This document shows positions 1 through 57,896 of a stretch of DNA of 64,000 nt, one piece after another. Both the position numbers and the translations under genes were made by a program. Under the pieces are notes generated by a model. That model saw only the letters and a program-made list of their open reading frames with translations. It had not been told where the DNA came from and searched no databases. The first letter of the stretch is position 1; the number at the start of each line of letters is the position of its first letter. This DNA is from an uncultured Gammaproteobacteria bacterium (lineage in GTDB: Bacteria > Patescibacteriota > Microgenomatia > UBA12405), in NCBI GenBank assembly GCA_964537905.1, contig CAZICU010000001.1, positions 15,046 through 79,045 on the forward strand, read 5' to 3'.

Positions 1-1378
1 CACTAGAACGACAGATTTGTACATAATCTCCATTACACCGTTTATCTCCAATAGGTGTACATTTAGTCAAGGTACAAGAACTAGTATTACATTTCCAGGT
101 AAATTTCGTTGGTTCTTCAACTGGATTTTGTGCCTGTAAACCACTCTTACATCCATATGCAGTTCCATAATCACACCAATCACCATCAGCAGGAGCTGAT
201 AAGGTGCATTTACAACAAGATTTAGTACTACATGCAGAATTACTAGTATTTACAGACTCACATAAACTTTTAATTCCCAAACATTGATCCGCCGGAACTT
301 TACCTGCAGGACAAGTTTCACAATTTGAAACTACATCACATCCAGTAGCAGTCATACAATCTGATTGATTAGTATAAGTATAATCACTAGTAGTTCCACT
401 AGTACAATTATAATCACCAGTACTTGTATTACAGGTACCTTTTTTCCATTTGTATGTAGTTTTAAGTGAAGACGCACAACAAAAAGCACCAGCCTCATTA
501 CAAGTTTTATCAGGTACAGAAGTAAAAGTAGTAGTACTACCAATATTTGCCGTCATTTGAGCACAACTACCATTTTTTTCTGACCAACAATTTAAGTTAG
601 TTCCAGTACATTTATTAGTTGAAACTACATCACATCCAGTAGCAGTCATACAATCTGATTGATTAGTATAAGTATAATCACTAGTAGTTCCACTAGTACA
701 ATTATAATCACCAGTACTTGTATTACAGGTACCTTTTTTCCATTTGTATGTAGTTGTTTTATCACATCCAGTAGCAGTCATACAATCTGATTGATTAGTA
801 TAAGTATAATCACTAGTAGTTCCACTAGTACAATTATAATCACCAGTACTTGTATTACAGGTACCTTTTTTCCATTTGTATGTAGTTGTAGTAGTACTTG
901 GTACAGCACAACAAACAGGAGTACCTCCAGAACAACCCGCGTTTGCTATTACTTCACCATTTTCAGCATTACATATTGCTACAGTTCCAACACAAGCCCC
1001 ACCCCTAGAATTACAAGTAGATGTAGAGTTACAACACACCAAAGGACTTGCACAAAAACCAGTAGTGTTAGAAATCACTCCTCTACCCGTCGTAGTTACA
1101 CACGTCTGATTATTTTCACAAACACCACCAACTTTAGAACACTTTGACTGACAATTTGGCACTTTGTTAGCATCCCAATAACAACTAGAATTATTACTAC
1201 ACTCAGTGAGTATACCGCAAGCTGTACAATTTGTATTAGAACAACCTGTCCCAGTTGCCGCTTTACTTCTATTCTCTTGATTCTGTTGGACCAATTTTGT
1301 CGTTACCGGCAGGGCTACTGCCATTACTAACATCACTACCATTATTGCTATTGAAGCGATACCTTTTTGTTTATTCAT
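1..1378 (-). CDS. Cys-rich secreted repeat protein, paralogue A (3' end runs off window start); N-term MNKQKGIASIAIIMVVMLVMAVALPVTTKLVQQNQENRSKA..., >450 aa, contains 3 copies of a 42-aa TTYKWKKGTCNTSTGDYNCTSGTTSDYTYTNQSDCMTATGCD module
   Basis: Manual reverse-strand translation from ATG (complement of cat at 1376-1378) is open to position 1. N-terminal hydrophobic anchor plus conserved QENRSKA motif shared with ORFs 1577-1858 and 2997-3329. Very high Cys/Thr/Asn/Gly content. Confidence 0.6.
   Translation of the reverse strand, partial: MNKQKGIASIAIMVVMLVMAVALPVTTKLVQQNQENRSKAATGTGCSNTNCTACGILTECSNNSSCYWDANKVPNCQSKCSKVGGVCENNQTCVTTTGRGVISNTTGFCASPLVCCNSTSTCNSRGGACVGTVAICNAENGEVIANAGCSGGTPVCCAVPSTTTTTYKWKKGTCNTSTGDYNCTSGTTSDYTYTNQSDCMTATGCDKTTTYKWKKGTCNTSTGDYNCTSGTTSDYTYTNQSDCMTATGCDVVSTNKCTGTNLNCWSEKNGSCAQMTANIGSTTTFTSVPDKTCNEAGAFCCASSLKTTYKWKKGTCNTSTGDYNCTSGTTSDYTYTNQSDCMTATGCDVVSNCETCPAGKVPADQCLGIKSLCESVNTSNSACSTKSCCKCTLSAPADGDWCDYGTAYGCKSGLQAQNPVEEPTKFTWKCNTSSCTLTKCTPIGDKRCNGDYVQICRSS
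338..889 (-). repeat. Intragenic near-identical tandem repeats (~126 nt unit, copies at ~338-463, 632-757, 764-889) encoding the 42-aa module of paralogue A
   Basis: Identical string acatccagtagcagtcatacaatctgattgattagtataagtataatcactagtagttccactagtacaattataatcaccagtacttgtattacaggtaccttttttccatttgtatgtagtt occurs 3 times; copies 2 and 3 are directly adjacent, copy 1 is separated by a ~165-nt unique spacer. Confidence 0.85.
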
Positions 1379-1576
1379 TTTTTTAATATAAAAATTACTC
1401 AATGAAAAAGTAAACCACTTTTAAAAATTTAAGTCAATAAGTCATTTTTATAATTCTATTAATTGTCTTTTCTAAATAGTAAAATCAACTAAAAAATAAC
1501 CTCTTTCAAAAAAAAATAATCCCCCCAAATTAATCCCAAAAAACATCCCTTAAAAAACACTTTAAACAATCAAAAT

Positions 1577-1858
1577 TTACAACGTATTACAATCACCAGT
1601 CGTTGTATTACATCCTACATCTCCACAACCGATGATACTAACAAAACCAATTCCAGCTGAATTACAAGTTTGAGAATACCATTGATTCAAAGAATTTTTA
1701 AAACATTCCTTCACATTTGGAGTACAGACATTTTCTACTGTTGCTTTACTTCGATTTTCTTGAACTTGTTGAACTAACTTTATGGTTATTGGTAAAGCCA
1801 CTACCATTAATAAAACTACAATTACTGCTATTGAAGCGATACCTTTTTGTTTATTCAT
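1577..1858 (-). CDS. Small Cys-rich secreted protein, paralogue B (93 aa)
   Basis: ORF track. N-term MNKQKGIASIAVIVVLLMVVALPITIKLVQQVQENRSKAT is nearly identical to paralogue A. 8 Cys in the mature part. Confidence 0.6.
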   Translation of the reverse strand: MNKQKGIASIAVIVVLLMVVALPITIKLVQQVQENRSKATVENVCTPNVKECFKNSLNQWYSQTCNSAGIGFVSIIGCGDVGCNTTTGDCNTL

Positions 1859-1910
1859 TTTTTTTAATATAAAAATTACTCAATGAAAAAGTAAACCACT
1901 TTTTAAAATA
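1810..1910 (-). repeat. ~100-nt segment (5' UTR/promoter plus first codons) duplicated at 1330-1430 and 1810-1910, indicating tandem gene duplication of paralogues A and B
   Basis: ctattgaagcgatacctttttgtttattcattttttt(t)aatataaaaattactcaatgaaaaagtaaaccact is present upstream of and into both genes. Confidence 0.8.
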
Positions 1911-1922
1911 TCTGTCAACGAC

Positions 1923-2957
1923 TCACTTTAAAATTCTACTAATATCACCTACTGTAATTAACAAAATTAATCCCAAAAGCAACATCATTCCTAAATTGTT
2001 TACTACTATCTCTAATTTCTGGTTCACTTTCTTTTTAAAAATCATTTCATATAAAACAAAAATAATTCTGCCACCATCTAATGCTGGAAAAGGTAAAATA
2101 TTTACCACCGCCAAATTAACCGATACTATTCCAAAAAAATGAATCACTGCCAATAATCCCTGGTTTTTATTAATAGCCGAAGTTGCTTCATACATCCCAA
2201 TTGGACCGCTAACATCTTTTGGCACTTGTCCCATAAACAATCCCCCAATCATTTTAAATACCCCACCGGCAATAATTTTTCCCCAATAATAAGCTTCTTT
2301 AAACCCAGCCCAAATACCTTCATAGAATCGATACCAAGGTACTTTTATCATCTCTGTATTAGAAATGGCTACTCCCATACTTCCCTCACCTTCTGGTGGA
2401 TTTTCTCTCACAGCGACGGTTATTTTTTTATTATTAATTATTAATTCCACATCCTTACCCTTATATTTACCTACTTCATCAATCAATTCATTAGCTTTTT
2501 TTACTTCAATACCATTTACTTGAGTAATCACATCATTTTCTTTTAAACCAGATTTATCTGCTGGTGAATCTTTAGTTACTCCTACAATTATCACTTTATC
2601 AACTTCTTTGGGAACTCCAACTACAGTATAAACCACACTAAATATAGTTATTGCCAAAACTAAATTCATAATTACTCCACCCAAAACTATTATCATTTTC
2701 TGCCACGGTTTCTTATGATTAAACGCCTCTCCCCCTTTACCATCACCATCTTCCCCATACAATTTACAAAAACCTCCGATAGGCAACCAATTTAAACTAT
2801 AAATAGTTCCTCTTATTTTTTTACCAAAAATTCTAGGTGGCAAACCCAAACCAAATTCTTCTACTTTTACCCCTGTTTTTCGAGCAGCAATAAAATGCCC
2901 CCATTCATGAACCAAAACTAAAAGAGATAAAGCTAAAACAAAAATTAATAAATCCAT
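1923..2957 (-). CDS. rseP: Site-2 protease RseP/RasP (M50 zinc metalloprotease with PDZ domain)
   Basis: HEWGHF (HExxH) in the first TM helix, PDZ-like central region, C-terminal LDGG motif. 344 aa, typical RseP architecture. Confidence 0.85.
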   Translation of the reverse strand: MDLLIFVLALSLLVLVHEWGHFIAARKTGVKVEEFGLGLPPRIFGKKIRGTIYSLNWLPIGGFCKLYGEDGDGKGGEAFNHKKPWQKMIIVLGGVIMNLVLAITIFSVVYTVVGVPKEVDKVIIVGVTKDSPADKSGLKENDVITQVNGIEVKKANELIDEVGKYKGKDVELIINNKKITVAVRENPPEGEGSMGVAISNTEMIKVPWYRFYEGIWAGFKEAYYWGKIIAGGVFKMIGGLFMGQVPKDVSGPIGMYEATSAINKNQGLLAVIHFFGIVSVNLAVVNILPFPALDGGRIIFVLYEMIFKKKVNQKLEIVVNNLGMMLLLGLILLITVGDISRILK

Positions 2958-2996
2958 AAAATCATAGTATTTAAATTAAAGTCTTTCCACAATATT

Positions 2997-3329
2997 TTAT
3001 TTTTTATTAGCACTGCAACTAACCATAATATCTGCACTCGTTCCAATACAATTCCAATCGTAACTACCATCATCAGCTTCACTATCCATCCAATTTACTG
3101 CACCAGAAGCACAAGCAACTTGAACATCAGGCATTGCCTCAACAGTTGTTCCATTAACTTCCCCACAAACAGCCTCAATCTCACGAATAATCACTGGAGT
3201 ATTTTCTTCCATTTCACTTGTTGCTTTACTTCGATTTTCTTGGCTATTTTCTGCCAACCAAGTAGTCAATGGAATCGCCACCGCTAATAACAAGGCTCCT
3301 AACATTAAATACTTATTTTTTTTACTCAT
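2997..3329 (-). CDS. Small Cys-rich secreted protein, paralogue C (110 aa)
   Basis: N-terminal anchor followed by ENSQENRSKAT motif, as in paralogues A and B. 6 Cys. Confidence 0.55.
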   Translation of the reverse strand: MSKKNKYLMLGALLLAVAIPLTTWLAENSQENRSKATSEMEENTPVIIREIEAVCGEVNGTTVEAMPDVQVACASGAVNWMDSEADDGSYDWNCIGTSADIMVSCSANKK

Positions 3330-3363
3330 TATTTACTAAGAATAAACTAAATAAATATTTAGG

Positions 3364-3924
3364 TCAACCTCTGATTTCTTTTTCTTTTTTAGAAGCAATA
3401 TCTTCTAATTTTTTAATAAATTCGTCGGTTATTTTCTGTAATTCAGTTTCGTCTCGTTTAAATTCATCTTCCGATATTTCTTTTGATTGTTTGGCAGACT
3501 GTAAATCTGATCTAAAATCAGCTCTCGCATCGCGAATCATTACTCTTGCTCCCTCCAACTTTCTTCCCAATAATTTTACATAATCTTCTCTTTGTTCTAC
3601 TGTTAACATTGGTAAACTCATTCTAATTATTTGTCCATCGACTACTGGATTCATTCCTACATTAGCCGCCGCAATTCCATTAGAAATTTCTCTGATCAAT
3701 GTTTGATCCCAAGGTTGAAAAGTTAAAGATCTAACATCAGGCACTCCAATTGATCCCAATTCAATTAGTTTCATTTTTTGTCCACCATAAACTGTCACTA
3801 CCACATTTTCAATTAATCCCGGGGTTGCTCTACCAGTTCTGAGTGAAGCAATATCTTCTACAAATATAGAAACAATTTTGTCCATTCGGACTCTAACTTC
3901 TGCAAAATTTATCATATAAATCAT
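3364..3924 (-). CDS. frr: Ribosome recycling factor
   Basis: RRF hallmark segments (VRTGRATPGLIENVVVTVYGG, LPMLTVEQREDYVKL). Probable true start is the internal Met MINFAEV (3915). Confidence 0.9.
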   Translation of the reverse strand: MIYMINFAEVRVRMDKIVSIFVEDIASLRTGRATPGLIENVVVTVYGGQKMKLIELGSIGVPDVRSLTFQPWDQTLIREISNGIAAANVGMNPVVDGQIIRMSLPMLTVEQREDYVKLLGRKLEGARVMIRDARADFRSDLQSAKQSKEISEDEFKRDETELQKITDEFIKKLEDIASKKEKEIRG

Positions 3925-3971
3925 TATACCAAAAAATATAATTTATTTTAAAAAAACTTAATCCTGTAATA

Positions 3972-4535
3972 TTGAAAATACCTAATTTGTGGTATAAAAT
4001 ATCACACATGAGAAAAGAAACTATACCTGATATAAAAAATTTTCAATTACCCACACCATCTGTTTATAATATAGACAATATTAAAAATAGAATTAATGAA
4101 TTAGAGTCTATTTCTTTTGACTCTAGATCAACTAGTGAAACTAATTTATTAAATTATTATCAACAACTTTTTAAAGTTCCTCTTAATCCAACAGATAGAA
4201 ATTTAGAACAACAAAACAGTCTTATCAAAAAATGTTCTTTGGGTAGCAATGAATATGTAGAAGAACTATATAATACCTGTTTTATCAAAACAGATGAATT
4301 CGATCCAGAAAATAATAAATATTCCCAAATAAAAAAAATTAGTAGTTTGTTAAGTTATATTTTAGATAAAAATGAAGTGTTTGAAAATATATTAGAGTTA
4401 GTTAGTCCAATAGCCAATACAAAACCTTATAGACAAACAATTTTATCTAATTTCAGAGAATATTGGGCTCCAGACGAAGAACTAAAAAGAAAAGCAATCC
4501 TAAGAATGAAAGAAAAGTGGGATTTAGTTGATTAA
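3972..4535 (+). CDS. Hypothetical protein (187 aa), opposite strand, inserted between frr and tsf where pyrH normally sits
   Basis: ORF only; no recognisable motif. Confidence 0.35.
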   Translation: MKIPNLWYKISHMRKETIPDIKNFQLPTPSVYNIDNIKNRINELESISFDSRSTSETNLLNYYQQLFKVPLNPTDRNLEQQNSLIKKCSLGSNEYVEELYNTCFIKTDEFDPENNKYSQIKKISSLLSYILDKNEVFENILELVSPIANTKPYRQTILSNFREYWAPDEELKRKAILRMKEKWDLVD

Positions 4536-4559: not shown

Positions 4560-5033
4560 TTAGATTTCGTATCTTTGAAACCTAGTTAATTTCATATTTT
4601 CCCCAAATTTGACCACTAAACCTTTTATTTTTTCTTCAATTGTAATTGAAGCATCTTTAATAAATTCTTGTTTTAAAAGTTGATCAACGTTTTCTGGATT
4701 CATTGCCGCAATTTGTAAACAGATATCTTTTGTTAATTCCATGAAATCTTCATGTTTAGCTACAAAATCAGTTTCACAAAGCAACTCAACCATAACTCCA
4801 ATTTTACCTGTAGAATGGGTATAAGTAGCTACTCTCCCCTGGTGAGTTTCTCTTTCAGTTTTGGTCTCTGCTTTTTTAAATCCTTTTTCTTTTAAAATTT
4901 GTTTGGCTTTAGTTTCATCACCATCAGCTTCTTCCAAAGCGGCTTTAATTTCCATAATTCCCAATCCAGTTTCATTTCTGATTTTTTTAACTAATTCAAT
5001 TATTTTTTTATTATCCATAATTTTTTTAAACAA
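4560..5033 (-). CDS. tsf: Elongation factor Ts (short form, 157 aa)
   Basis: N-terminal UBA-like IRNETGLGIMEIKAALEEADGDETKAKQILKEKG, typical of EF-Ts. Confidence 0.85.
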   Translation of the reverse strand: MFKKIMDNKKIIELVKKIRNETGLGIMEIKAALEEADGDETKAKQILKEKGFKKAETKTERETHQGRVATYTHSTGKIGVMVELLCETDFVAKHEDFMELTKDICLQIAAMNPENVDQLLKQEFIKDASITIEEKIKGLVVKFGENMKLTRFQRYEI

Positions 5034-5081: not shown

Positions 5082-5999
5082 CTATTTAGTACCTGCTGCT
5101 TTAATTGCTTTTCCAATTTCTTCAACCAAAAGATTAACACTTTTAACTGAATCATCATTGGCTGGAATAGCAAAATCAACTTTATAAGGATTGGCATCAG
5201 TATCACTAATAGCCACTACCTTAATTTTTCTTAATTTAGCTTCTTTTACTGCTGTTTTTTCACAACCAGCATCAACTACAAAAAGAATATCAAATAATCT
5301 TTCTAAACTAGTCAAACCACCAACAATCTTTTCTAATCTAGCAACTTCTTTGTTCATATCCGAAAGTTCTTTTTTAGTACTTTCAACAAATTTTCCCGAT
5401 TCTAAACCACTTTTAAGATCAACTAATTTTTTGACGTCTTTTTTAATTTGATCCCAATTAGTAATTGTTCCACCTAACCATCGATCAGTTACATAAGGTA
5501 CACCAGCATTTAAAGCTACTCTTCGAACCACCTCTCTTGACTGTCTTTTGGTTCCTACTAAAACTATCTGTTTATTATTTCTTTTTTGGTTATAAATAAA
5601 ATTACAAGCTTTTTGTAATCCTTCCAAAGTTTTTACCAAATCAATTACTTCAATTCCATCTTTTTTACCATAAATAAAATCACGAGCTTTTGGATTAGTT
5701 TTAGAAACTTTATGACCTAAATGACAACCCGCATTCAATAAATCTTTTAATCCAATGGTTAAATCATAATTTTTATCTTCTTTAGCCGCCGTAGCTTTAG
5801 CCAAGGATGGCTTCTCTTCAACTGCATTCACTTTATTTTCCAAAATCTTTTTCTCTTCCAATTTCTTTTCGTTCATTTTCTTGATGTTTTCAGCTGAAAT
5901 CTTACTTTGATTTTTAGCTTTAACCACCAATGCTTTTTTAACCAAAGATTTACCGCTTCGGTTGACGGTTTTAGTTATATTTTTTTTGGCTTCTGCCAT
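5082..5999 (-). CDS. rpsB: 30S ribosomal protein S2 with ~70-aa Lys/Glu-rich N-terminal extension
   Basis: LLNAGCHLGHKVSKTNPKARDFIYG and TDRWLGGTITNW motifs. Positioned in the rpsB-tsf-frr operon order. Confidence 0.9.
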   Translation of the reverse strand: MAEAKKNITKTVNRSGKSLVKKALVVKAKNQSKISAENIKKMNEKKLEEKKILENKVNAVEEKPSLAKATAAKEDKNYDLTIGLKDLLNAGCHLGHKVSKTNPKARDFIYGKKDGIEVIDLVKTLEGLQKACNFIYNQKRNNKQIVLVGTKRQSREVVRRVALNAGVPYVTDRWLGGTITNWDQIKKDVKKLVDLKSGLESGKFVESTKKELSDMNKEVARLEKIVGGLTSLERLFDILFVVDAGCEKTAVKEAKLRKIKVVAISDTDANPYKVDFAIPANDDSVKSVNLLVEEIGKAIKAAGTK

Positions 6000-6002
6000 A
6001 TT

Positions 6003-6115
6003 TTTTTATTCCGATTTATCGGAATCCTCCTTACTTGTCCGCCGAAATTTTAATGAAGGCGGATTAATTTCGATACCGGGTATTACTCCCAGGATTCTTG
6101 TATCGAAACAAAATT
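6003..6115 (-). promoter_or_regulatory. Structured rpsB 5' leader: SD (aggagg, complement) separated from the AUG by a perfect hairpin ttccgatttatcggaa; second hairpin tccgcc...ggcgga
   Basis: Inverted repeats read directly. The SD-to-start distance (~27 nt) is only compatible with initiation if the hairpin forms. Confidence 0.3.
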
Positions 6116-6173
6116 TTTAATCTAGAAATTATAACATAACCCTATTTCAACAAAAAATTGTTAAAATACTTTC

Positions 6174-8378
6174 ATGTCTGACAATGGTTTTATTGTCCTA
6201 GAAATTCGATTACCTCAACAAAACGAGTTTACTTTTGAGGCCATGTCTTCTTTATTGTCTAATTTTACCCAATTTTCCAAACTTTCTTTTGCTGAAAAAT
6301 TAGTTGGAAAGAAAAAAACTATTGCTTCTTTAGAAATTGTTTTAAAAGATGGCCAGCTTCGTTTTTTTGTTGTTATTCCCAAAACTGAAATTGATTTTTT
6401 TAGATCTCAAATTTTAGCTCAATATTCCAGCGCTATTACCAGAGAAAGTTCTGATCACATCGCTGAATTTTTAACTCCAACTTTAACTGACCCTAACCAA
6501 CCAAATTCTCCTTTAAACATTATTTCTCCCTCTTTTACTCAACTTGGTTTAGGTAGATCTTACAGTTATCCCCTAAAAACTACTAAAGATTTCCGAGATA
6601 CTGACCCTTTAAACTCAGTTTTAGCTCCCCTATCTCGATCAAACAATATCAAAGATTTTTTTGTCTTTCAAATTGTCCTTTCCTCTGCCCCAAAAAATTG
6701 GCAAGGCAGCATTATTAGTACTATTCAAAACGGAATTTTAGTCGACAAAGAACGCAACATTCGCACCGCCCATCCTGACAAAATGATTTTTGAACAAAAA
6801 ATCCAATTTCCCGGAATTTTTGCTCAAATTAACTTTCTTTCAAATAATCCTGGTTTAATCTCTTCTGTTTCTTCTTCATTTGGAGCTTACACTAATCCTC
6901 GAGGTAATTTTATTAAAAATTATCCTCCTAATTTTTTTACTAAAAACAAACTTCTTAAAGCTATCAAAAACAGAGAAATTTTTTCTGGCCTCAAAGGTCA
7001 AATTTTTAACACCGAAGAACTTTCCGCCATTTGGCATTTCCCTAATCAAATCACCAAACTTCCTAATATTGCTTGGGGAAAAAATCTTTATTCTGATCCT
7101 CCAGAAAATTTACCAATTGCTGACAATACGACTCCCGAAGAAAAATCTCAAATTACTTTTTTTGCCAAAACTGAATTTAGAAATAAAGATTCTATTTTTG
7201 GTATCAAACAAGGAGAAGACCGTCGCCGTCATACCTACATCATCGGTAAATCAGGTACTGGTAAAACCACTCTTATTGCCAATATGGCCATTGATGATAT
7301 TCGCAAAGGTCGAGGTGTGGCTGTTATCGATCCTCATGGTGATTTATGTAACACTATTCTCGATTATGTCCCTAGTTCCCGTATTAATGATGTTTGTTAT
7401 TTTAATCCTGCCGACCCCGAATACGTTTACCCTCTCAACGTTCTTGAAGCCAAAAATGATTCTCAAAAAGAACTAATTGCCTCCGGTGTTCTCTCTATTT
7501 TTAAAAAACTTTACGGTACTGTTTCCTGGGGACCACGACTTGAACATATCTTACGCAATGCTGTTTTAACTTTAGTCAATTCGCCCGGTTCAGATCTTAC
7601 TCATATCGTTGAAATTTTAACCAATAAAAATTTTCGAGAAAAATGTGTTTCTCAACTTACCAATCAAACTCTTATCAATTTCTGGCGCAACGAATTTGAC
7701 CGTATGGATCCAAAATTTCAAAATGAAGCTGTGTCTCCTATTTTAAATAAAGTTGGTCAATTTATTGCTTCGACTAACATTCGCAATACCGTCGCCCATG
7801 CTAAATCAAAAATAAATATTCAGGAAATCATGGATAATAAAAAGATTTTAATTGCCGATTTATCTACTGGTCGTCTTGGTGAAGACAATTCTTCTCTTCT
7901 TGGAGCCATGATTATCACTCAAATTCAACTTTCCGCCATGAATCGGGTTTTTCAAGCCGCTGAAGATCGTTCTGATTTTTATCTTTACGTCGATGAATTT
8001 CAAAATTTTGCTACCGAAGCTTTTATTAAAATCCTTTCTGAAGCTCGCAAATTTAAACTTAACCTTATCATTGCCAACCAATATATGTCTCAATTAGACA
8101 GGACTATTCAAGACGCCATTTTAGGCAACGTTGGTTCTATTATTTCTTTTGTTGTCGGTAATCAAGATGCTTTTATTTTAGCCAAAGAATTCGGTTCTGC
8201 CTTCCCCCCCGAAGACTTAGTTAAAATTGGTAAATATCAAGTCATTTGTAAACTTTCTATCGATTCCGAAACCACCCAACCATTTTATGCCACCACTTTA
8301 CCTCCTTTATCTTGTAAAAATCAACAACGAGACAAACTAATCAGAACTTCTCAAGAACATTGGGGTAAAAAGAAATAA
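6174..8378 (+). CDS. Soluble TraD/TrwB/VirD4-type (type IV coupling protein-like, TraG-D_C/DUF87) P-loop ATPase, 734 aa, no N-terminal TM
   Basis: Walker A YIIGKSGTGKTT followed by AVIDPHGDL (cf. TrwB VIVDPNGD). Walker B YVDEFQNF and the LIIANQYMSQL motif typical of T4CP C-termini. Confidence 0.6.
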   Translation: MSDNGFIVLEIRLPQQNEFTFEAMSSLLSNFTQFSKLSFAEKLVGKKKTIASLEIVLKDGQLRFFVVIPKTEIDFFRSQILAQYSSAITRESSDHIAEFLTPTLTDPNQPNSPLNIISPSFTQLGLGRSYSYPLKTTKDFRDTDPLNSVLAPLSRSNNIKDFFVFQIVLSSAPKNWQGSIISTIQNGILVDKERNIRTAHPDKMIFEQKIQFPGIFAQINFLSNNPGLISSVSSSFGAYTNPRGNFIKNYPPNFFTKNKLLKAIKNREIFSGLKGQIFNTEELSAIWHFPNQITKLPNIAWGKNLYSDPPENLPIADNTTPEEKSQITFFAKTEFRNKDSIFGIKQGEDRRRHTYIIGKSGTGKTTLIANMAIDDIRKGRGVAVIDPHGDLCNTILDYVPSSRINDVCYFNPADPEYVYPLNVLEAKNDSQKELIASGVLSIFKKLYGTVSWGPRLEHILRNAVLTLVNSPGSDLTHIVEILTNKNFREKCVSQLTNQTLINFWRNEFDRMDPKFQNEAVSPILNKVGQFIASTNIRNTVAHAKSKINIQEIMDNKKILIADLSTGRLGEDNSSLLGAMIITQIQLSAMNRVFQAAEDRSDFYLYVDEFQNFATEAFIKILSEARKFKLNLIIANQYMSQLDRTIQDAILGNVGSIISFVVGNQDAFILAKEFGSAFPPEDLVKIGKYQVICKLSIDSETTQPFYATTLPPLSCKNQQRDKLIRTSQEHWGKKK

Positions 8379-18306: not shown

Positions 18307-18942
18307 ATGGAAAGTTTTATTTTTAAAATTATCTCTTTTATCTGTCTCATCATTGCTATTACTATCCACGAATTTTTCCATGCTCTAGCTGCTGACCATA
18401 TGGGTGATCCTACTCCCCGATCTCACGGTCGCCTTACTCTAAATCCATTAGCTCACGCCGATCCTATTGGTACATTTTTTCTACCTTTGATTAATCTGAT
18501 GACTGGTTTACCTACCATCGGTTGGGCCAAACCAGTTCCTATTGATCCATTTAATTTTCGTCATCCCAAAAAAGATGAGATTATAGTTTCTTTGGCTGGT
18601 CCAGTTAGTAATCTTTTTCTCGCCATTATTGCTTCTCTTTGTTTCCGATTTATTCCTTTATCTCAAATTTTTTATATCTTTTTTTATTCACTTACTCTCA
18701 TCAATGTTTCTCTTTTCATTTTTAATCTAATTCCCATCCCTCCACTTGACGGTTCTCACCTTCTTCTCAATCTACTTCCAGAAAAATCACGAATCCAATG
18801 GCAAGAAATATTTGACCGATATGGTTTTTTACTAATTATAGTTCTGGTCTTTTTCCCTGTTTTTAATGGTCAAAGTCTAATCAGTCTAATTATGATTCCC
18901 GCCATTAAGTTTCTTCTTAGTTTACTTTTACCAATTCTTTAA
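18307..18942 (+). CDS. Site-2 protease family (M50B) membrane metalloprotease
   Basis: HEFFHALAADHMGD (HExxH in TM1), multiple TM helices, PPLDGSHLL motif. Confidence 0.7.
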   Translation: MESFIFKIISFICLIIAITIHEFFHALAADHMGDPTPRSHGRLTLNPLAHADPIGTFFLPLINLMTGLPTIGWAKPVPIDPFNFRHPKKDEIIVSLAGPVSNLFLAIIASLCFRFIPLSQIFYIFFYSLTLINVSLFIFNLIPIPPLDGSHLLLNLLPEKSRIQWQEIFDRYGFLLIIVLVFFPVFNGQSLISLIMIPAIKFLLSLLLPIL

Positions 18943-20411: not shown

Positions 20412-20483
20412 GCCTGAGTAGCTCAGTGGTAGAGCAATCCTTTTGTAAAGGAAAGGTCGTGAGTTCGACTCCCACCTCAGGCT
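20412..20483 (+). tRNA. tRNA-Thr (anticodon UGU)
   Basis: Manual cloverleaf: acceptor GCCTGAG/CTCAGGC, D-arm GCTC-AGTGGTA-GAGC, anticodon loop TTTGTAA, variable loop AGGTC, T-loop TTCGACT. CCA not encoded. Confidence 0.8.
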
Positions 20484-20529
20484 CATTTTTATAAATTATT
20501 TTGATACAATATCAAAGTATTAATAGTCT

Positions 20530-20602
20530 GCCCGGATAGCTCAGTTGGTAGAGCATCCCCTTGGTAAGGGGAAGGTCATGAATTCGAGTTTCATTCCGGG
20601 CT
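20530..20602 (+). tRNA. tRNA-Thr (anticodon GGU)
   Basis: Acceptor GCCCGGA/TCCGGGC, D-arm GCTC-AGTTGGTA-GAGC, anticodon stem TCCCC/GGGGA with loop TTGGTAA, T-arm ATGAA-TTCGAGT-TTCAT. Confidence 0.85.
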
Positions 20603-20606
20603 CAAA

Positions 20607-20891
20607 ATGAATGGATATATTTATGTCCTTCAATCTCTTAAAAATGGCCGATTTTATATTGGCAGTACCAATAATTTAGAAAGAAGATTAATTGAACATA
20701 ATCAAGGAATAAGTACTTATACTAGTTTTACTAAACCTTTTGAAATGATTTTTTCTCAAAAATTTGACAATTTAATAACTGCCAGAAAAATAGAATTTAA
20801 ACTAAAGCAATTTAAAAGCAAAAAAGTTATAATAGACATCATTAAGTCAGGAGTGATTAGAATTGATGAATTCTCCAACATTAGTTGGTAG
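20607..20891 (+). CDS. Small GIY-YIG nuclease family protein (94 aa), copy 1
   Basis: YIYVLQSLKNGRFYIGSTNNLERRLIEHN is a GIY...YIG..R..EH catalytic motif. ATG begins 4 nt after the tRNA-Thr(GGU) discriminator. Stop TAG lies inside the downstream tRNA fragment D-loop (agttggTAGagca). Confidence 0.75.
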   Translation: MNGYIYVLQSLKNGRFYIGSTNNLERRLIEHNQGISTYTSFTKPFEMIFSQKFDNLITARKIEFKLKQFKSKKVIIDIIKSGVIRIDEFSNISW

Positions 20892-20942
20892 AGCAGTCCG
20901 ATTGGTTCGGACAGGTCGTGGATTCGAGTTCCACTCCAGGCT
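20883..20942 (+). pseudogene. tRNA 3' fragment (D-loop to acceptor 3' end; positions ~14-73), lacking 5' acceptor and D-stem strand
   Basis: agttggtagagca-GTCCG-attggtt-CGGAC-aggtc-GTGGA-ttcgagt-TCCAC-tccaggc-t. The 5' side is replaced by GIY-YIG ORF1 coding sequence. Confidence 0.65.
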
Positions 20943-20946
20943 CAAA

Positions 20947-21231
20947 ATGAATGGATATGTTTATGTCCTTCAATCTTTAAAAAACAATAGATTTTATATT
21001 GGCAGTACTACCAATATTCAAAGAAGATTAATCGAACATAATTCTGGCCGAAGCACTTATACTAGTTTCTCAAGACCTTTCGAACTAATTTTTTCTCAAA
21101 AATTTGACTCCATCACTATTGCTAAAAAGATAGAATTTAAAATTAAGCAATTTAAAAGTAAAAAAGTTATAATAGACATCATTAAGTCAGGAGAAATTAG
21201 AATTGATGAGTTCTTCAACATTAGTTGGTAG
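20947..21231 (+). CDS. Small GIY-YIG nuclease family protein, copy 2 (~80% identical to copy 1; ORF-track N-terminal extension is translated tRNA fragment)
   Basis: MNGYVYVLQSLKNNRFYIGSTTNIQRRLIEHN. Starts 4 nt after the tRNA-fragment 3' end. Ends EFFNISW* with TAG in the next tRNA fragment. Confidence 0.75.
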   Translation: MNGYVYVLQSLKNNRFYIGSTTNIQRRLIEHNSGRSTYTSFSRPFELIFSQKFDSITIAKKIEFKIKQFKSKKVIIDIIKSGEIRIDEFFNISW

Positions 21232-21281
21232 AGCAGTCCGAAGTATCGGACAGGTCATGAATTCGAGTTTCATTCCGGGCT
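21223..21281 (+). pseudogene. Second tRNA 3' fragment; T-arm and acceptor 3' strand identical to tRNA-Thr(GGU) 20572-20602, anticodon loop degenerate (6 nt)
   Basis: agttggtagagca-GTCCG-aagtat-CGGAC-aggtcatgaattcgagtttcattccgggc-t. Confidence 0.65.
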
Positions 21282-21369
21282 CACATCAGTTTATAAAGTC
21301 AAAAGTTTTTAAAGTTTCTAAATTAAATTACTTTATAACTTTATAACTTTATAAACTTTCAACTGATTT

Positions 21370-21452
21370 GGAGGGGTGCTCCGAATGGTAAGGAACTTGT
21401 TTTGAAAACAAGCGTCAGCAATGACATGCAGGTTCAACTCCTGTCCCCTCCG
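21370..21452 (+). tRNA. tRNA-Ser (anticodon UGA), class II with long variable arm
   Basis: Acceptor GGAGGGG/CCCCTCC, 3-bp D-stem, anticodon stem CTTGT/ACAAG with loop TTTGAAA, long variable arm, T-arm GCAGG-TTCAACT-CCTGT, discriminator G. Confidence 0.7.
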
Positions 21453-21567
21453 CCTTCGCCCGACGAAGTGATAACGTAGGCGGGTAATATTCAATATTCT
21501 TAGCCCAATAAAAGTAATTTTGTTTCCTGCTTCAGCGGACAATGTCCGCATTAATGTAAAATTAATT

Positions 21568-29301: not shown

Positions 29302-29334
29302 ATAAAATCGGTATTTACAAGCTTTTTTCTTATG

Positions 29335-29406
29335 CAGGCCCATGAGGATTCGAACCTCAAATGGAGATTTTGGAGATCCCAGTGATAACCATTTCACTAT
29401 GGGCCT
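29335..29406 (-). tRNA. tRNA-Trp (anticodon CCA)
   Basis: Reverse complement AGGCCCA-TA-GTGA-AATGGTTA-TCAC-T-GGGAT-CTCCAAA-ATCTC-CATT-TGAGG-TTCGAAT-CCTCA-TGGGCCT-G folds as a canonical cloverleaf. Confidence 0.8.
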
Positions 29407-29508
29407 AAGTCAGATTGTTAAAATGATACCACTTGCCTACCGGCAGGCAGGTTTCACCACAGACCAAAATATATTTTTAGAGTATCGAATTCTACCTTAA
29501 TTTAATCC

Positions 29509-30129
29509 CTATTTCAAAGTCAAAATCTTTTTTATTCCTTCCAAAATATCATTCGGGTTTTCAGCTATAAAATCAGTCTTATTTTTCTCTAATCTCTCTT
29601 TTTCATGCATTCCCCAAATAACTCCAATTGCTTTTATCTTTGTCTCATGAGCCTCTTTTACATCACCCACACTATCAGTCACCAACAAAGTTTCTTGTGG
29701 TTTAATTTTATATTTATCCAAAATAATTTTAATTTTTTCTACTTTACTTGGATTAAAATTCTTTCCCAAAATTTCTGTAAAATATTTATCTAAATTATGT
29801 TTCTCTAAGAAAATTTTTATCGAATTTTCATCCGCCCCAGACACAATTATCAGTTTATAACCTTGTAAATCCAATTCTTTAATCACCCTATCTATACCCT
29901 CAACTGGCACTAATTGAACAATTTCTTCTCGATATCTTTCAAAATAATGTTCAAAATAAGAATTATCAATATTGTCTCGCAATTTTTTATCATAAACATT
30001 TCCATCACACCAATCTTGCATTTCTCCATAAGTAATATCTGACATATGTTCTTTGGTAATTTCCCACGACAATTGACAGCTATTTACTATCACCCCATCA
30101 AAATCAAAAAGAATTATTTTATTATTCAT
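29509..30129 (-). CDS. HAD-superfamily hydrolase (true start MNNKIILFDFDGV; ORF-track extension overlaps tRNA-Ala)
   Basis: FDFDGVIV motif I, ...SGADE.. motif II region, K...VTDSVGDV motif III/IV. Confidence 0.7.
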   Translation of the reverse strand: MNNKIILFDFDGVIVNSCQLSWEITKEHMSDITYGEMQDWCDGNVYDKKLRDNIDNSYFEHYFERYREEIVQLVPVEGIDRVIKELDLQGYKLIIVSGADENSIKIFLEKHNLDKYFTEILGKNFNPSKVEKIKIILDKYKIKPQETLLVTDSVGDVKEAHETKIKAIGVIWGMHEKERLEKNKTDFIAENPNDILEGIKKILTLK

Positions 30130-30131
30130 TG

Positions 30132-30204
30132 TGGACCCAAGGGGACTCGAACCCCTGACCTTCCCCATGCCATGGGGACGCGCTACCAACTACGCTATGG
30201 GCCC
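30132..30204 (-). tRNA. tRNA-Ala (anticodon GGC) with G3:U70 identity pair
   Basis: Reverse complement GGGCCCA-TA-GCGT-AGTTGGTA-GCGC-G-TCCCC-ATGGCAT-GGGGA-AGGTC-AGGGG-TTCGAGT-CCCCT-TGGGTCC-A. Confidence 0.8.
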
Positions 30205-31817: not shown

Positions 31818-32381
31818 ATGAAAAAAAATTTTGTTGTCATCCTCATCCTTACAACAGCAATACTGTTGTTCAGTTGCGGTGTTAAAACCGAACGGACAAC
31901 CACCGAAACCGCCGCAACCACCGCAACCACCGAAACCGCCGCAACCGCAGCAATTAAGATCTCCGCACCTCCCCCCGAGATGATTGAACCCGCCGAACCA
32001 AAGTTAAATCTCAATGAACCACTTATTGGAACGTTAGACGACTTCGGGGTTTTGGTAACAAGAACAGTAAACTGTGCGGTCAGCGGCCAAGTCTTGGACC
32101 AGTCTTTAAACGAGGGCGAAATCATTGTTGGGAATTGCTTTGCAATTCACGACAACGGCTGGATCTCCCAAGAGGGTAATAATGTTTTCTATGTGATAGC
32201 CCCCAAGGGAGGGATCAGGGTTCGCGCAACTGTTTATGATGGAGTTTTCTTCATCATTGATGCTCATAAAATTACCCTGAACCAATCCATCGCCGCCATG
32301 ACATTGGTATTAAAGGAAGGATTCAACGCAACTAATATCCAATATCACCAACTCAAGGATTACGGCGATCCCGTTAAATAG
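31818..32381 (+). CDS. Lipoprotein with Thr/Ala/Glu repeat linker
   Basis: Signal peptide with lipobox LLFSC, TETAATTA repeats, locally GC-rich. Confidence 0.5.
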   Translation: MKKNFVVILILTTAILLFSCGVKTERTTTETAATTATTETAATAAIKISAPPPEMIEPAEPKLNLNEPLIGTLDDFGVLVTRTVNCAVSGQVLDQSLNEGEIIVGNCFAIHDNGWISQEGNNVFYVIAPKGGIRVRATVYDGVFFIIDAHKITLNQSIAAMTLVLKEGFNATNIQYHQLKDYGDPVK

Positions 32382-46505: not shown

Positions 46506-47066
46506 TTAGTCTTGCCAAGTGATTGGTCTAACATTCACCAAAGTTCGACTAGAAACATTTGATCCAGCATTTCCAGTTACAATTGTGCTTCCTCCGACTA
46601 AATTTAAAGCTCCAGCCGCAACTCCAATAGACTTTTCTACCGTCGTTACGTTAGCTTGTTGATTAGTCCCAGAATCTGCATCTGCCTCGGTTATACCTTT
46701 AACCTCAACCGTATTAATTTTTGTTGGAGTTGTCATACAACCATAACAATAAGTCATACCACAACCACAAGCATCAGCATTAGCAATAGTCAAAGAACTG
46801 GCATTTGCATAAGCATTACCAGTAATAATAGTCTGACGATTCAAACCGCTAGCCGACAAAGCTAATACTTCTACTGATTTTGTTACCTCCGTCTGATTAG
46901 CTTGTACATTGCCGCCTGTATTTGCAGTTGCCACTGTTTGTGAGTTAATTTTTACTGTATTCACTTCTGGCATTTGAAAACTAGGCATATAATATGCCAT
47001 AGCTGGAACAGCAAAAGCCAACAAAGCTAGAGTAATTCCACCTAAACTAATTATCTTTTTTAACAT
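46506..47066 (-). CDS. Secreted protein (186 aa) with two copies of the TGNAxxNxSSxTxxN module found in the 844-aa neighbour
   Basis: Signal peptide ALLAFAVPAMA; repeat similarity by eye. Confidence 0.45.
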   Translation of the reverse strand: MLKKIISLGGITLALLAFAVPAMAYYMPSFQMPEVNTVKINSQTVATANTGGNVQANQTEVTKSVEVLALSASGLNRQTIITGNAYANASSLTIANADACGCGMTYCYGCMTTPTKINTVEVKGITEADADSGTNQQANVTTVEKSIGVAAGALNLVGGSTIVTGNAGSNVSSRTLVNVRPITWQD

Positions 47067-57699: not shown

Positions 57700-57856
57700 T
57701 TTTTAATTATTTCTGTTATAATTCCCCATCTAACCGAAGACAGCAGGTTTAGTATTCCGAAACTTTAGTGAAGGATACTCATAAATCCCGCCGAGGCAAA
57801 ACAATTTATTTTGTTTTTATATAATCCTCGCTTCTTCGGCGAGGCTTTTTTTTGTT
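57700..57856 (+). promoter_or_regulatory. rplJ (L10) leader with terminator/antiterminator alternative hairpins
   Basis: cccgccgaggc (57787-97) can pair with either arm of the terminator hairpin cctcgc-ttcttc-ggcgagg (57826-44) followed by ttttttttg. Confidence 0.45.
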
Positions 57857-57896
57857 TTACTAAAAACTAAAAAGCTAATTACTAATTAACTAAAGA

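Follow-up and report, generated by a model that had tools for sequence, protein, structure and literature searches.

YSIRK-G/S and KxYKxGKxW signal peptides and the ESPR extension of autotransporters are long Sec-type leaders in which a lineage-specific motif precedes many unrelated surface proteins. In Mycoplasma, the Vlp, Vsp and Vsa families consist of clustered genes with near-identical promoters, 5′ untranslated regions (5′UTRs) and signal peptides, followed by unrelated mature parts that contain perfect in-frame repeats and vary in size. The Candidate Phyla Radiation (CPR), or Patescibacteria, consists mostly of uncultivated epibionts, and how these cells attach to and interact with their hosts is largely unknown. 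Here, we describe a leader that shares these general features with the YSIRK, KxYKxGKxW and ESPR systems. We found it on three genes, called A, B and C, in a 64,000-nucleotide stretch of DNA (GenBank assembly GCA_964537905.1, contig CAZICU010000001.1, positions 15,046 to 79,045 of the forward strand; hereafter the window). A, B and C probably belong to a large multigene family of Shapirobacteria (Microgenomates, CPR) that is defined only by this leader. The explanation we favour, and consider rather likely, is that the leader is a lineage-specific, cleavable export or sorting signal on diversifying surface proteins, some of which would be displayed by cohesin-dockerin binding.

In the first 6 kb of the window, the minus strand reads rpsB, tsf, frr, C, rseP, B, A. 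The DNA has a G+C content of 32%, and RseP falls into one cluster with a protein that bears the name Candidatus Shapirobacteria (Microgenomates, CPR). The central features are the following.

1..1378, minus strand: gene A, leader plus Cys-rich mature region; 459 residues visible, 3′ end beyond the window
1259..1378, minus strand: leader of A, MNKQKG-IASIAIMVVMLVMAVALPVTT-KLVQQN-QENRSKA, with the motif at 1279-1259; fits the family consensus
1577..1858, minus strand: gene B, 93 residues; leader 1858-1742, mature peptide of 54 residues with 6 Cys (11.1%)
2997..3329, minus strand: gene C, 110 residues; leader 3329-3222, lacking the Gly at -28, and a 74-residue domain with 4 Cys (5.4%)
1923-2957, minus strand: rseP, site-2 intramembrane metalloprotease of the M50 family, with HExxH and one PDZ domain

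The original prediction, made from the letters alone, had placed three minus-strand genes here, each with a hydrophobic anchor followed by QENRSKA and each with an unrelated, Cys-rich mature region, and had named the gene between them rseP. Open reading frame (ORF) and motif checks confirmed this arrangement. Each gene encodes an N-terminus with basic residues, then a hydrophobic stretch of some 21 residues, then the heptad QENRSKA (1279-1259 in A, 1762-1742 in B and 3242-3222 in C), and these are the only QENRSKA leader ORFs in the 64-kb window. The mature parts are mutually dissimilar and Cys-rich to differing degrees: 51 Cys in the 419 visible residues of A (12.2%), with the lower values listed above for B and C. 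The domain of C follows the pattern CG..NG...P...C..G..NW.D...DG.Y.W.C, and C is a member of a family of small proteins seen between tsf and frr, between frr and rseP, and after rseP in related genomes; A occupies the position after rseP that is conserved in the lineage. None of the three proteins matched a model in Pfam and NCBIfam scans, and neither the C family nor mature A gave a significant hit when searched against PDB sequences. An AlphaFold2 model of C built from 9 homologues had a pLDDT of 41.6 and was unusable. The identity of RseP was clear (TIGR00054, E 2.4e-63; Peptidase_M50 and a single PDZ domain).

We next consider how far the leader extends. We searched 1.84 billion representative proteins exhaustively with HMMER, using a leader profile built from six sequences; clusters formed at 50% identity numbered 425 at E ≤ 1e-3 and 86 at E ≤ 1e-10. 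In each of the 150 listed hits the leader falls at the extreme N-terminus, inside the first 61 residues; the leader-bearing proteins among the profile hits are 47 to 1516 residues long. Scanning a single genome per species with a degenerate DNA pattern identified 57 leader ORFs in 35 loci, mostly titled Shapirobacteria. Metagenome contigs, scanned in a second round, contributed 77 more loci, which brought the total to 167 leader ORFs in 112 loci of genomes and metagenomes, some of them redundant. The taxonomic range was read from titled records, mostly of Shapirobacteria type; more divergent leader variants in the clusters carried no taxon name. A wider search for the motif had been named beforehand as the point on which the idea of a specialised leader would stand or fall, and the motif was found far beyond the three paralogues. 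With at least 425 clusters and independently located ORFs, the shared N-terminus is thus borne out as a specialised leader at the protein level. Since it occurs in hundreds of clusters, it is not a duplication artefact. A word-index homology search with B and with a 56-sequence leader alignment found almost nothing, the index being unsuited to short leaders on long proteins.

The leader is about 36-45 residues long and, with positions numbered from the motif Q as 0, has the consensus [KR]G[IFL][AS]Q[IL]..x.GMLL.A[VI][ASG]LP[VI][AT]TKLVQQN-Q[ED]NR[SGN]xA-A. Conservation was measured in an alignment of 143 of the top 150 profile hits, anchored on the motif. From Gly(-28) to Ala(+7), each position carries about 1.75-4.3 bits of information, against less than 0.9 bits from +8 on. 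R(+3) and A(+6) are invariant in the 143 sequences, and Q(0), P(-10), A(-14) and G(-28) are present in 138, 139, 132 and 135 of them, respectively. At the most conserved residues the codons vary freely: Q is encoded by CAA in 31 cases and CAG in 26, R by AGA, CGA, AGG and CGG, and A by GCA, GCG, GCT and GCC. Because all of these synonymous codons are used, selection acts on the peptide and not on the RNA. Rfam and tRNA scans of positions 1-4000 found no RNA element, and we rejected an RNA-level cause for the fact that B and C encode the motif with identical nucleotides, on the grounds of this missing Rfam match and the free synonymous variation. Scans of 100 members against Pfam and NCBIfam gave no model for the leader, and literature searches on motif strings and on a CPR signal-peptide motif returned nothing relevant. 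Judged by these two databases and by the papers that motif-string searches reach, the leader appears to be undescribed.

Some related loci carry the leader without any cargo. In the slot between tsf and frr, ORFs such as P0010 (47 residues; locus L007, about 2776-2917) and P0008 (43 residues) encode a complete leader and then stop after 3-8 residues. These are either decayed family members or stand-alone leader peptides.

The proteins behind the leader are rich in Cys and frequently carry extracellular domains. Across the 143 aligned members, the median Cys content of the mature region is 8%, and the median distance from the motif to the first Cys is 7 residues. Pfam scans of 100 members matched Dockerin_1 in 28, Big_2 in 12, Cohesin in 2 and TSP_1 in 2, which bears out the earlier view that these proteins are surface-located or secreted. 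A dockerin calcium-loop motif was found within about the last 70 residues of 65 of 147 members. The common architecture, as these sequence features show, is the leader, a variable Cys-rich region and a C-terminal dockerin. In a Saccharibacterium that has been cultivated, a dockerin protein of the envelope is reported to be essential (PMC10633639).

Past the leader-gene island, related genomes carry a set of conserved genes, two for membrane proteins and then yqeY and ybeY; the corresponding post-island region of this genome lies beyond the window. The first membrane protein, of 206 residues, is weakly cohesin-like: it matches Pfam Cohesin at E 0.0027, and its only three PDB profile hits are all cohesins (E 0.005-0.27). 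The second, of 240 residues, has an fn3/purple-acid-phosphatase-N domain and a weak, sub-threshold Dockerin_1 match.

L015 9534-10154, and L009 9042-9650 and 10337-11059: cohesin-like and fn3 neighbour genes, with homologues in about 10 loci

The cohesin-like neighbour begins with a plain N-terminal helix that lacks the QENRSKA motif. The lack of the motif there fits a leader carried by released cargo and not by an anchor.

We therefore propose the following sequence of events, in which Sec dependence, cleavage, disulfide formation, surface display and adhesive function are all inferred. The basic N-terminus and the hydrophobic helix would carry the protein through Sec with the N-terminus inside. 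The leader would be removed at or near the sharp boundary of conservation, either at [S/G/N]-x-A↓A or at A-x-[A/S/G]↓LP inside the helix (arrows mark the cut); the inner cut would turn the 18-residue LP...RSKA segment into a pro-peptide or sorting tag. The product then released would be an extracellular module rich in Cys and held by disulfide bonds. In about a third to half of the members, the type I dockerin end would allow cohesin-bearing surface proteins to hold the module, and such partners may be encoded in the same island of related genomes. The likely function would be adhesion or interaction with the host or with other cells. Genes for these proteins accumulate, co-oriented, inside and just past the rpsB-tsf-frr-rseP cluster.

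The layout of the leader is that of a Sec-type signal: K or R occurs within the first 12 residues and a hydrophobic stretch runs from -27 to -7. Two candidate signal-peptidase sites are present, and both obey the -3/-1 rule. At the first, A-[VI]-[ASG]↓L-P inside the hydrophobic stretch, -3 is A in 132 of the 143 sequences and -1 is A, S or G in 140; cleavage there would leave an 18-residue LP...RSKA tag. This site was overlooked in the earlier reading. The second, [S/G/N]-x-A↓A, lies at the conservation boundary, 13 residues past the hydrophobic stretch; here -1 is A in all 143 sequences, and -3 is S in 110, G in 10, T in 1, N in 17 and R in 3. In locus L017, a 54-nt tandem duplication (6059-6165; 2.0 copies, 92% matches) lies inside a leader. 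It repeats nearly the LPV(A/V)TKLVQQNQENRSQ(A/T) segment, which the two candidate sites bound, with an offset of about one codon; duplication of this LP...RSQA unit hints at a discrete module.

Other leader types do not account for these sequences. The same window encodes ordinary short signal peptides (46506-47066, ...AFAVPAMA↓YY) and a lipobox protein (31818-32381), which indicates that the QENRSKA leader is a separate class. As had been claimed, the leader has no lipobox (no Cys is among the top residues from -28 to +7 in the 143 aligned leaders, nor in the leaders of A, B and C) and is no double-glycine bacteriocin or RiPP (ribosomally synthesised and post-translationally modified peptide) leader, since it contains a 21-residue hydrophobic helix and ends in A-A. 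The claimed absence of a sortase signal also held: the only LPXTG-like element is an N-terminal LP[VI][AT]T after the helix, at the wrong end and in the wrong order, and the C-termini are dockerins or unrelated sequences. NCBIfam scans gave no hit to YSIRK or KxYKxGKxW models.

Several observations weigh against a cleaved leader on displayed proteins. The top 150 sequences were chosen with a leader profile, which makes the leader conservation seen in their alignment circular in part; neither the drop after +7 nor the evidence from independent DNA scans has this weakness. B and C have no dockerin and the C-terminus of A lies beyond the window, and the cohesin assignment of the 206-residue neighbour falls below the Pfam threshold. 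At the motif site, position -3 is N or R in about 14% of members (20 of 143). The distance of about 13 residues from helix to motif Ala is long for a signal-peptidase c-region, and, at about 21 residues (-27 to -7), the hydrophobic stretch has the length required of a permanent membrane anchor. Furthermore, a generic signal peptidase needs no Q-E-N-R, so that another partner must read the motif.

These points lead to the first alternative, an uncleaved signal anchor. Here the proteins would be type II (N-in) membrane proteins and KLVQQNQENRSKAA would be a conserved juxtamembrane stalk that binds the wall, an S-layer or a partner. The hydrophobic stretch would span the membrane, helix and stalk are conserved as a whole, as expected for a structural or interaction element, and the low-confidence AlphaFold2 model of C puts residues 4-30 in one helix. 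Set against this, conservation ends abruptly after A-A, as it does at leader/mature junctions, and two good -3/-1 sites are available. In addition, nearly half of the proteins end in a dockerin, which would be redundant if they were already anchored, and the presumed anchor, the cohesin-like neighbour, has a different N-terminal helix without the motif. We regard a permanent anchor as possible but unlikely.

A second alternative arises from the position of the genes. The rpsB-tsf-frr-rseP group is an ancient housekeeping cluster of many bacteria, and in the window its remaining members are as follows.

3364-3924, minus strand: frr (ribosome recycling factor), the member upstream of rseP in the cluster, 34 nt from C
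4560-5033, minus strand: tsf, cluster member
5082-5999, minus strand: rpsB, cluster member

The placement of leader genes beside rseP proved to be conserved in the lineage. Of the 167 leader ORFs, 118 (71%) share a locus with rpsB, tsf, frr or rseP, and all 118 are co-oriented with those genes: 73 lie after rseP, 20 between tsf and frr, and 8 between frr and rseP, as C does. The other 49 are in loci without cluster markers. Three of these loci (L024, L029 and L033) carry cohesin-like or fn3/dockerin island neighbours, and in others the match is at the contig end. Because the scan patterns were specific to the leader and not to the locus, the enrichment near rseP is real.

Site-2 protease (S2P) homologues reportedly take part in pheromone production, and Eep handles enterococcal pheromone precursors. 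In an RseP-coupled scheme, which is compatible with the favoured export leader, the remnant left after the first cut would be a dedicated RseP substrate that is cleared or released as a signalling peptide. The leader has the layout of such substrates, with a basic N-terminus and with G(-19) and P(-10) as helix-destabilising residues, and the N-in orientation follows from the positive-inside rule. PMC8144685 describes how RseP clears signal peptides out of the membrane. The conserved, co-oriented linkage argues in the same direction. The housekeeping nature of the cluster, the leader genes between tsf and frr and elsewhere (including those in marker-less loci) and the promoter-like elements that A and B possess (see below) argue in the other. 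Moreover, RseP cuts within the membrane and so cannot read the external QENRSKA motif, except possibly via its PDZ domain. The linkage may be functional, or it may only be positional, as suggested by the ancient operon and by the promoter-like elements of A and B that are kept across genomes. A dedicated coupling to RseP seems possible but unlikely, and the unusually strict linkage makes it a concrete, testable hypothesis on S2P proteases and leader processing.

Two further ORFs touch on this cluster and its protease. A second M50 site-2 protease homologue of 211 residues is encoded at 18307-18942 (plus strand), 15 kb from rseP; with its HEFFH motif and Peptidase_M50 match (E 1.1e-15), it is a further candidate intramembrane protease of this genome. 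Between tsf and frr, on the opposite strand, lies an ORF of 187 residues without a Pfam match (3972-4535, plus strand), in the slot where other Shapirobacteria hold C-like leader genes; it is called as a 175-residue gene in four independent assemblies.

A bolder version of the favoured explanation is that the leader is the recognition element of a new N-terminal sorting system of the CPR. A cut at A-x-A↓LP would expose an 18-residue LP(V/I)(A/T)TKLVQQNQENRSKA tag for dedicated machinery to read, and the neighbouring RseP, for instance via its PDZ domain, would process the leader or release a peptide signal. We consider this speculative and quite unlikely; if true, the sortase, exosortase and rhombosortase systems would have a counterpart acting at the N-terminus.

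The original prediction also stated that the leader does not match type IV prepilins. This holds for profile models, since PF07963 and TIGR02532 gave no hit in A, B, C or 100 family members, and for the Glu at +5, which is replaced by P, F or V. It does not hold for the start of the helix: leaders of the A and B type have [KR]-G-hydrophobic at -28, which resembles a prepilin-peptidase site. G(-28) is present in 135 of the 143 top hits, including A and B, where it precedes I, F or L, and is absent from C and C-like leaders. The A/B-type leader might therefore be a non-canonical class III signal cut after Gly(-28), with a helix like pilin alpha-1 and with variable modules mounted on a fibre or pseudopilus. 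The general layout is pilin-like, a conserved helix with Gly and Pro kinks being followed by a hypervariable, disulfide-containing C-terminal part, and weak single matches were obtained to ComGE (E 0.097), GspH (0.0095) and ComGC (0.039). Besides the missing Glu and the lack of a prepilin N-methylation hit, however, C-type leaders share the motif but not the Gly, and the proteins reach 1516 residues. No pilus-machinery genes were recognised among the conserved neighbours. A class III signal is accordingly improbable. Canonical pilin motifs of the G-F-T-L-I-E type are absent from the window and the first 36 loci.

The remaining evidence concerns how the family changes. Gene A had been described as containing three identical 126-nt repeats. 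The copies are exactly identical over 127 nt (335-461 = 629-755 = 761-887) and each encodes a 42-residue, four-Cys module, as predicted; only two of the three (629-755 and 761-887) are in tandem, with a 132-nt period.

761..887, minus strand: repeat copy 1, module starting at A residue 165
629..755, minus strand: repeat copy 2, module starting at residue 209; tandem member, 132-nt period
335..461, minus strand: repeat copy 3, module starting at residue 307

Taken pairwise, exact identity extends over 137 nt for the copies at 335-461 and 629-755 and over 129 nt for the tandem copies at 629-755 and 761-887. An exact 32-nt probe from the repeat matched no JGI metagenome contig.

The reported identity of about 100 nt between A and B was not found in that form. 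There are instead two exact runs of 39 and 45 nt (about 84 nt; 1346-1384 and 1378-1422 in A coordinates), offset by a 1-nt indel in the poly-A tract ahead of the ATG (7 A at 1379-1385 versus 8 A at 1859-1866). They span a promoter-like element, the 5′UTR and the first 11 or so codons. The rest of the A and B leaders is about 75% identical, with many synonymous changes. A very recent tandem duplication is thus supported for this short segment and not for the whole genes. Because the identity is so confined, gene conversion or cassette duplication explains it better than whole-gene duplication, which points to a cassette of promoter and leader start, not entire genes, as the recently copied unit. 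The promoter-like elements of the two genes are near-identical and are conserved ahead of post-rseP leader genes in other genomes.

1385..1437, minus strand: promoter-like element of A, TTGACT-N17 (ending ..GTGG)-TTTACT, with TATATT 7 nt ahead of the ATG
1866..1918, minus strand: promoter-like element of B, TTGACA-N17-TTTACT ... TATATT, beginning 5 nt past the rseP stop codon

As the TATATT box is only 7-8 nt from the ATG, the mRNAs of A and B may be leaderless or nearly so. The 7-8-nt poly-A tract that follows the box could affect expression.

Because the source is a short-read metagenome-assembled genome (MAG), the copy number of perfect repeats is not guaranteed, and the repeats and the A/B duplication could be assembly artefacts. 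Assembly is prone to error at perfect repeats that exceed the read or k-mer length. An identical RseP is present on six contigs, each of independent public origin (Logan assemblies; L037-L040 shown), and the four shown all end 23-49 nt past the rseP stop, where the duplicated A/B segment starts (window 1859-1929); short-read assemblies systematically break at the post-rseP island. Nevertheless, the repeats stay in frame and encode whole 42-residue modules with different junctions, and L001 independently confirms the rseP-B arrangement. Of 40 leader ORFs with 200 or more residues, from many independent assemblies, 16 contain exact internal direct repeats of at least 40 nt, compared with 4 of 165 other ORFs in the same loci. 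This difference in frequency (40% versus 2.4%) makes perfect in-frame repeats a family-wide trait, and an artefact appears very doubtful. Mature A, furthermore, has almost no relatives at the orthologous post-rseP position, though the RseP proteins there are 66-80% identical. The mature parts appear to diversify very quickly, with orthologous positions carrying unrelated sequences.

Finally, B and C could be precursors of bacteriocin-like or RiPP peptides matured by RseP, given that M50 proteases mature some RiPPs, that both are short Cys-rich peptides behind a conserved leader, that RseP weakly matches a daptide protease model (E 7.9e-4; cutoff 300 bits) and that one member matches a bacteriocin-like model at 6e-4, but this is extremely improbable: the size range of the family, with the same leader on proteins of up to 1516 residues with dockerin and Ig-like domains, largely excludes peptide precursors, the leader holds a membrane-spanning helix unlike those of double-glycine or RiPP peptides, no modification enzymes or ABC exporters adjoin the genes, and RseP is the housekeeping orthologue (TIGR00054).

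The rest of the window and the records for related loci yielded a few further observations. Divergent from rpsB lies a gene for a 734-residue ATPase of the DUF87/TrwB type (HerA/VirB4/coupling-protein-like; 6174-8378, plus strand), which is kept at the same position in 13 related loci. Ordinary housekeeping content is represented by a ribosomal protein L10 leader (RF00557, 52 bits) at 57716-57863 (plus strand) and by five tRNA genes (Thr, Thr, Ser, Trp, Ala) at 20412-21454 and 29334-30204. Many MAGs with a Shapirobacteria-type locus (RseP 66-80% identical; for example L002, L007 and L009) are deposited as "uncultured Gammaproteobacteria", and one contig with the same type of locus bears the name Paludibacter and two that of Parcubacteria. 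Mislabelling of the records or mis-binning of the contigs is the likely reason.

Taken together, these results provide one short leader as a sequence handle for the surface and secreted proteins of Shapirobacteria-type genomes; as it is missing from Pfam and NCBIfam, such proteins are annotated only as hypothetical. The family points to cohesin-dockerin display and repeat-driven diversification in this group. Compared with YSIRK, KxYKxGKxW and ESPR leaders, the sequence is unrelated and without an NCBIfam or Pfam hit, the motif lies in the h, c and juxtamembrane parts and not in the n region, and the lineage is CPR. With type IV prepilins the A/B-type leader shares a short basic N-terminus ending in Gly, a conserved helix with Gly and Pro, and a variable disulfide-containing domain; it differs in the missing Glu at +5, the lack of a profile match, the C-type leaders without Gly and the additional conserved QENRSKA. 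Substrates of RseP and other S2P proteases (RseA, FecR, remnant signal peptides and Eep-processed pheromone precursors) have a comparable N-in single-pass helix, helix-breaking residues and a short external tail after the first cut, whereas the proteins described here have no anti-sigma domain and their adjacency to rseP may be only positional. Cohesin-dockerin assemblies, including non-cellulosomal ones, resemble the family in the C-terminal type I dockerin with two calcium-binding loops and in the cohesin-like genes nearby; unlike in cellulosomes, the cargo consists of Cys-rich modules and not glycoside hydrolases, and the cohesin neighbour is sub-threshold. The Mycoplasma families differ in that the leader described here has neither lipobox nor Cys and precedes Cys-rich, often dockerin-ended mature parts, and no phase-switch element was found here; the likeness is one of gene structure. 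In that structure the parallel is close: a reduced, host-dependent bacterium, a shared cassette of promoter and leader, and variable, repeated mature parts.

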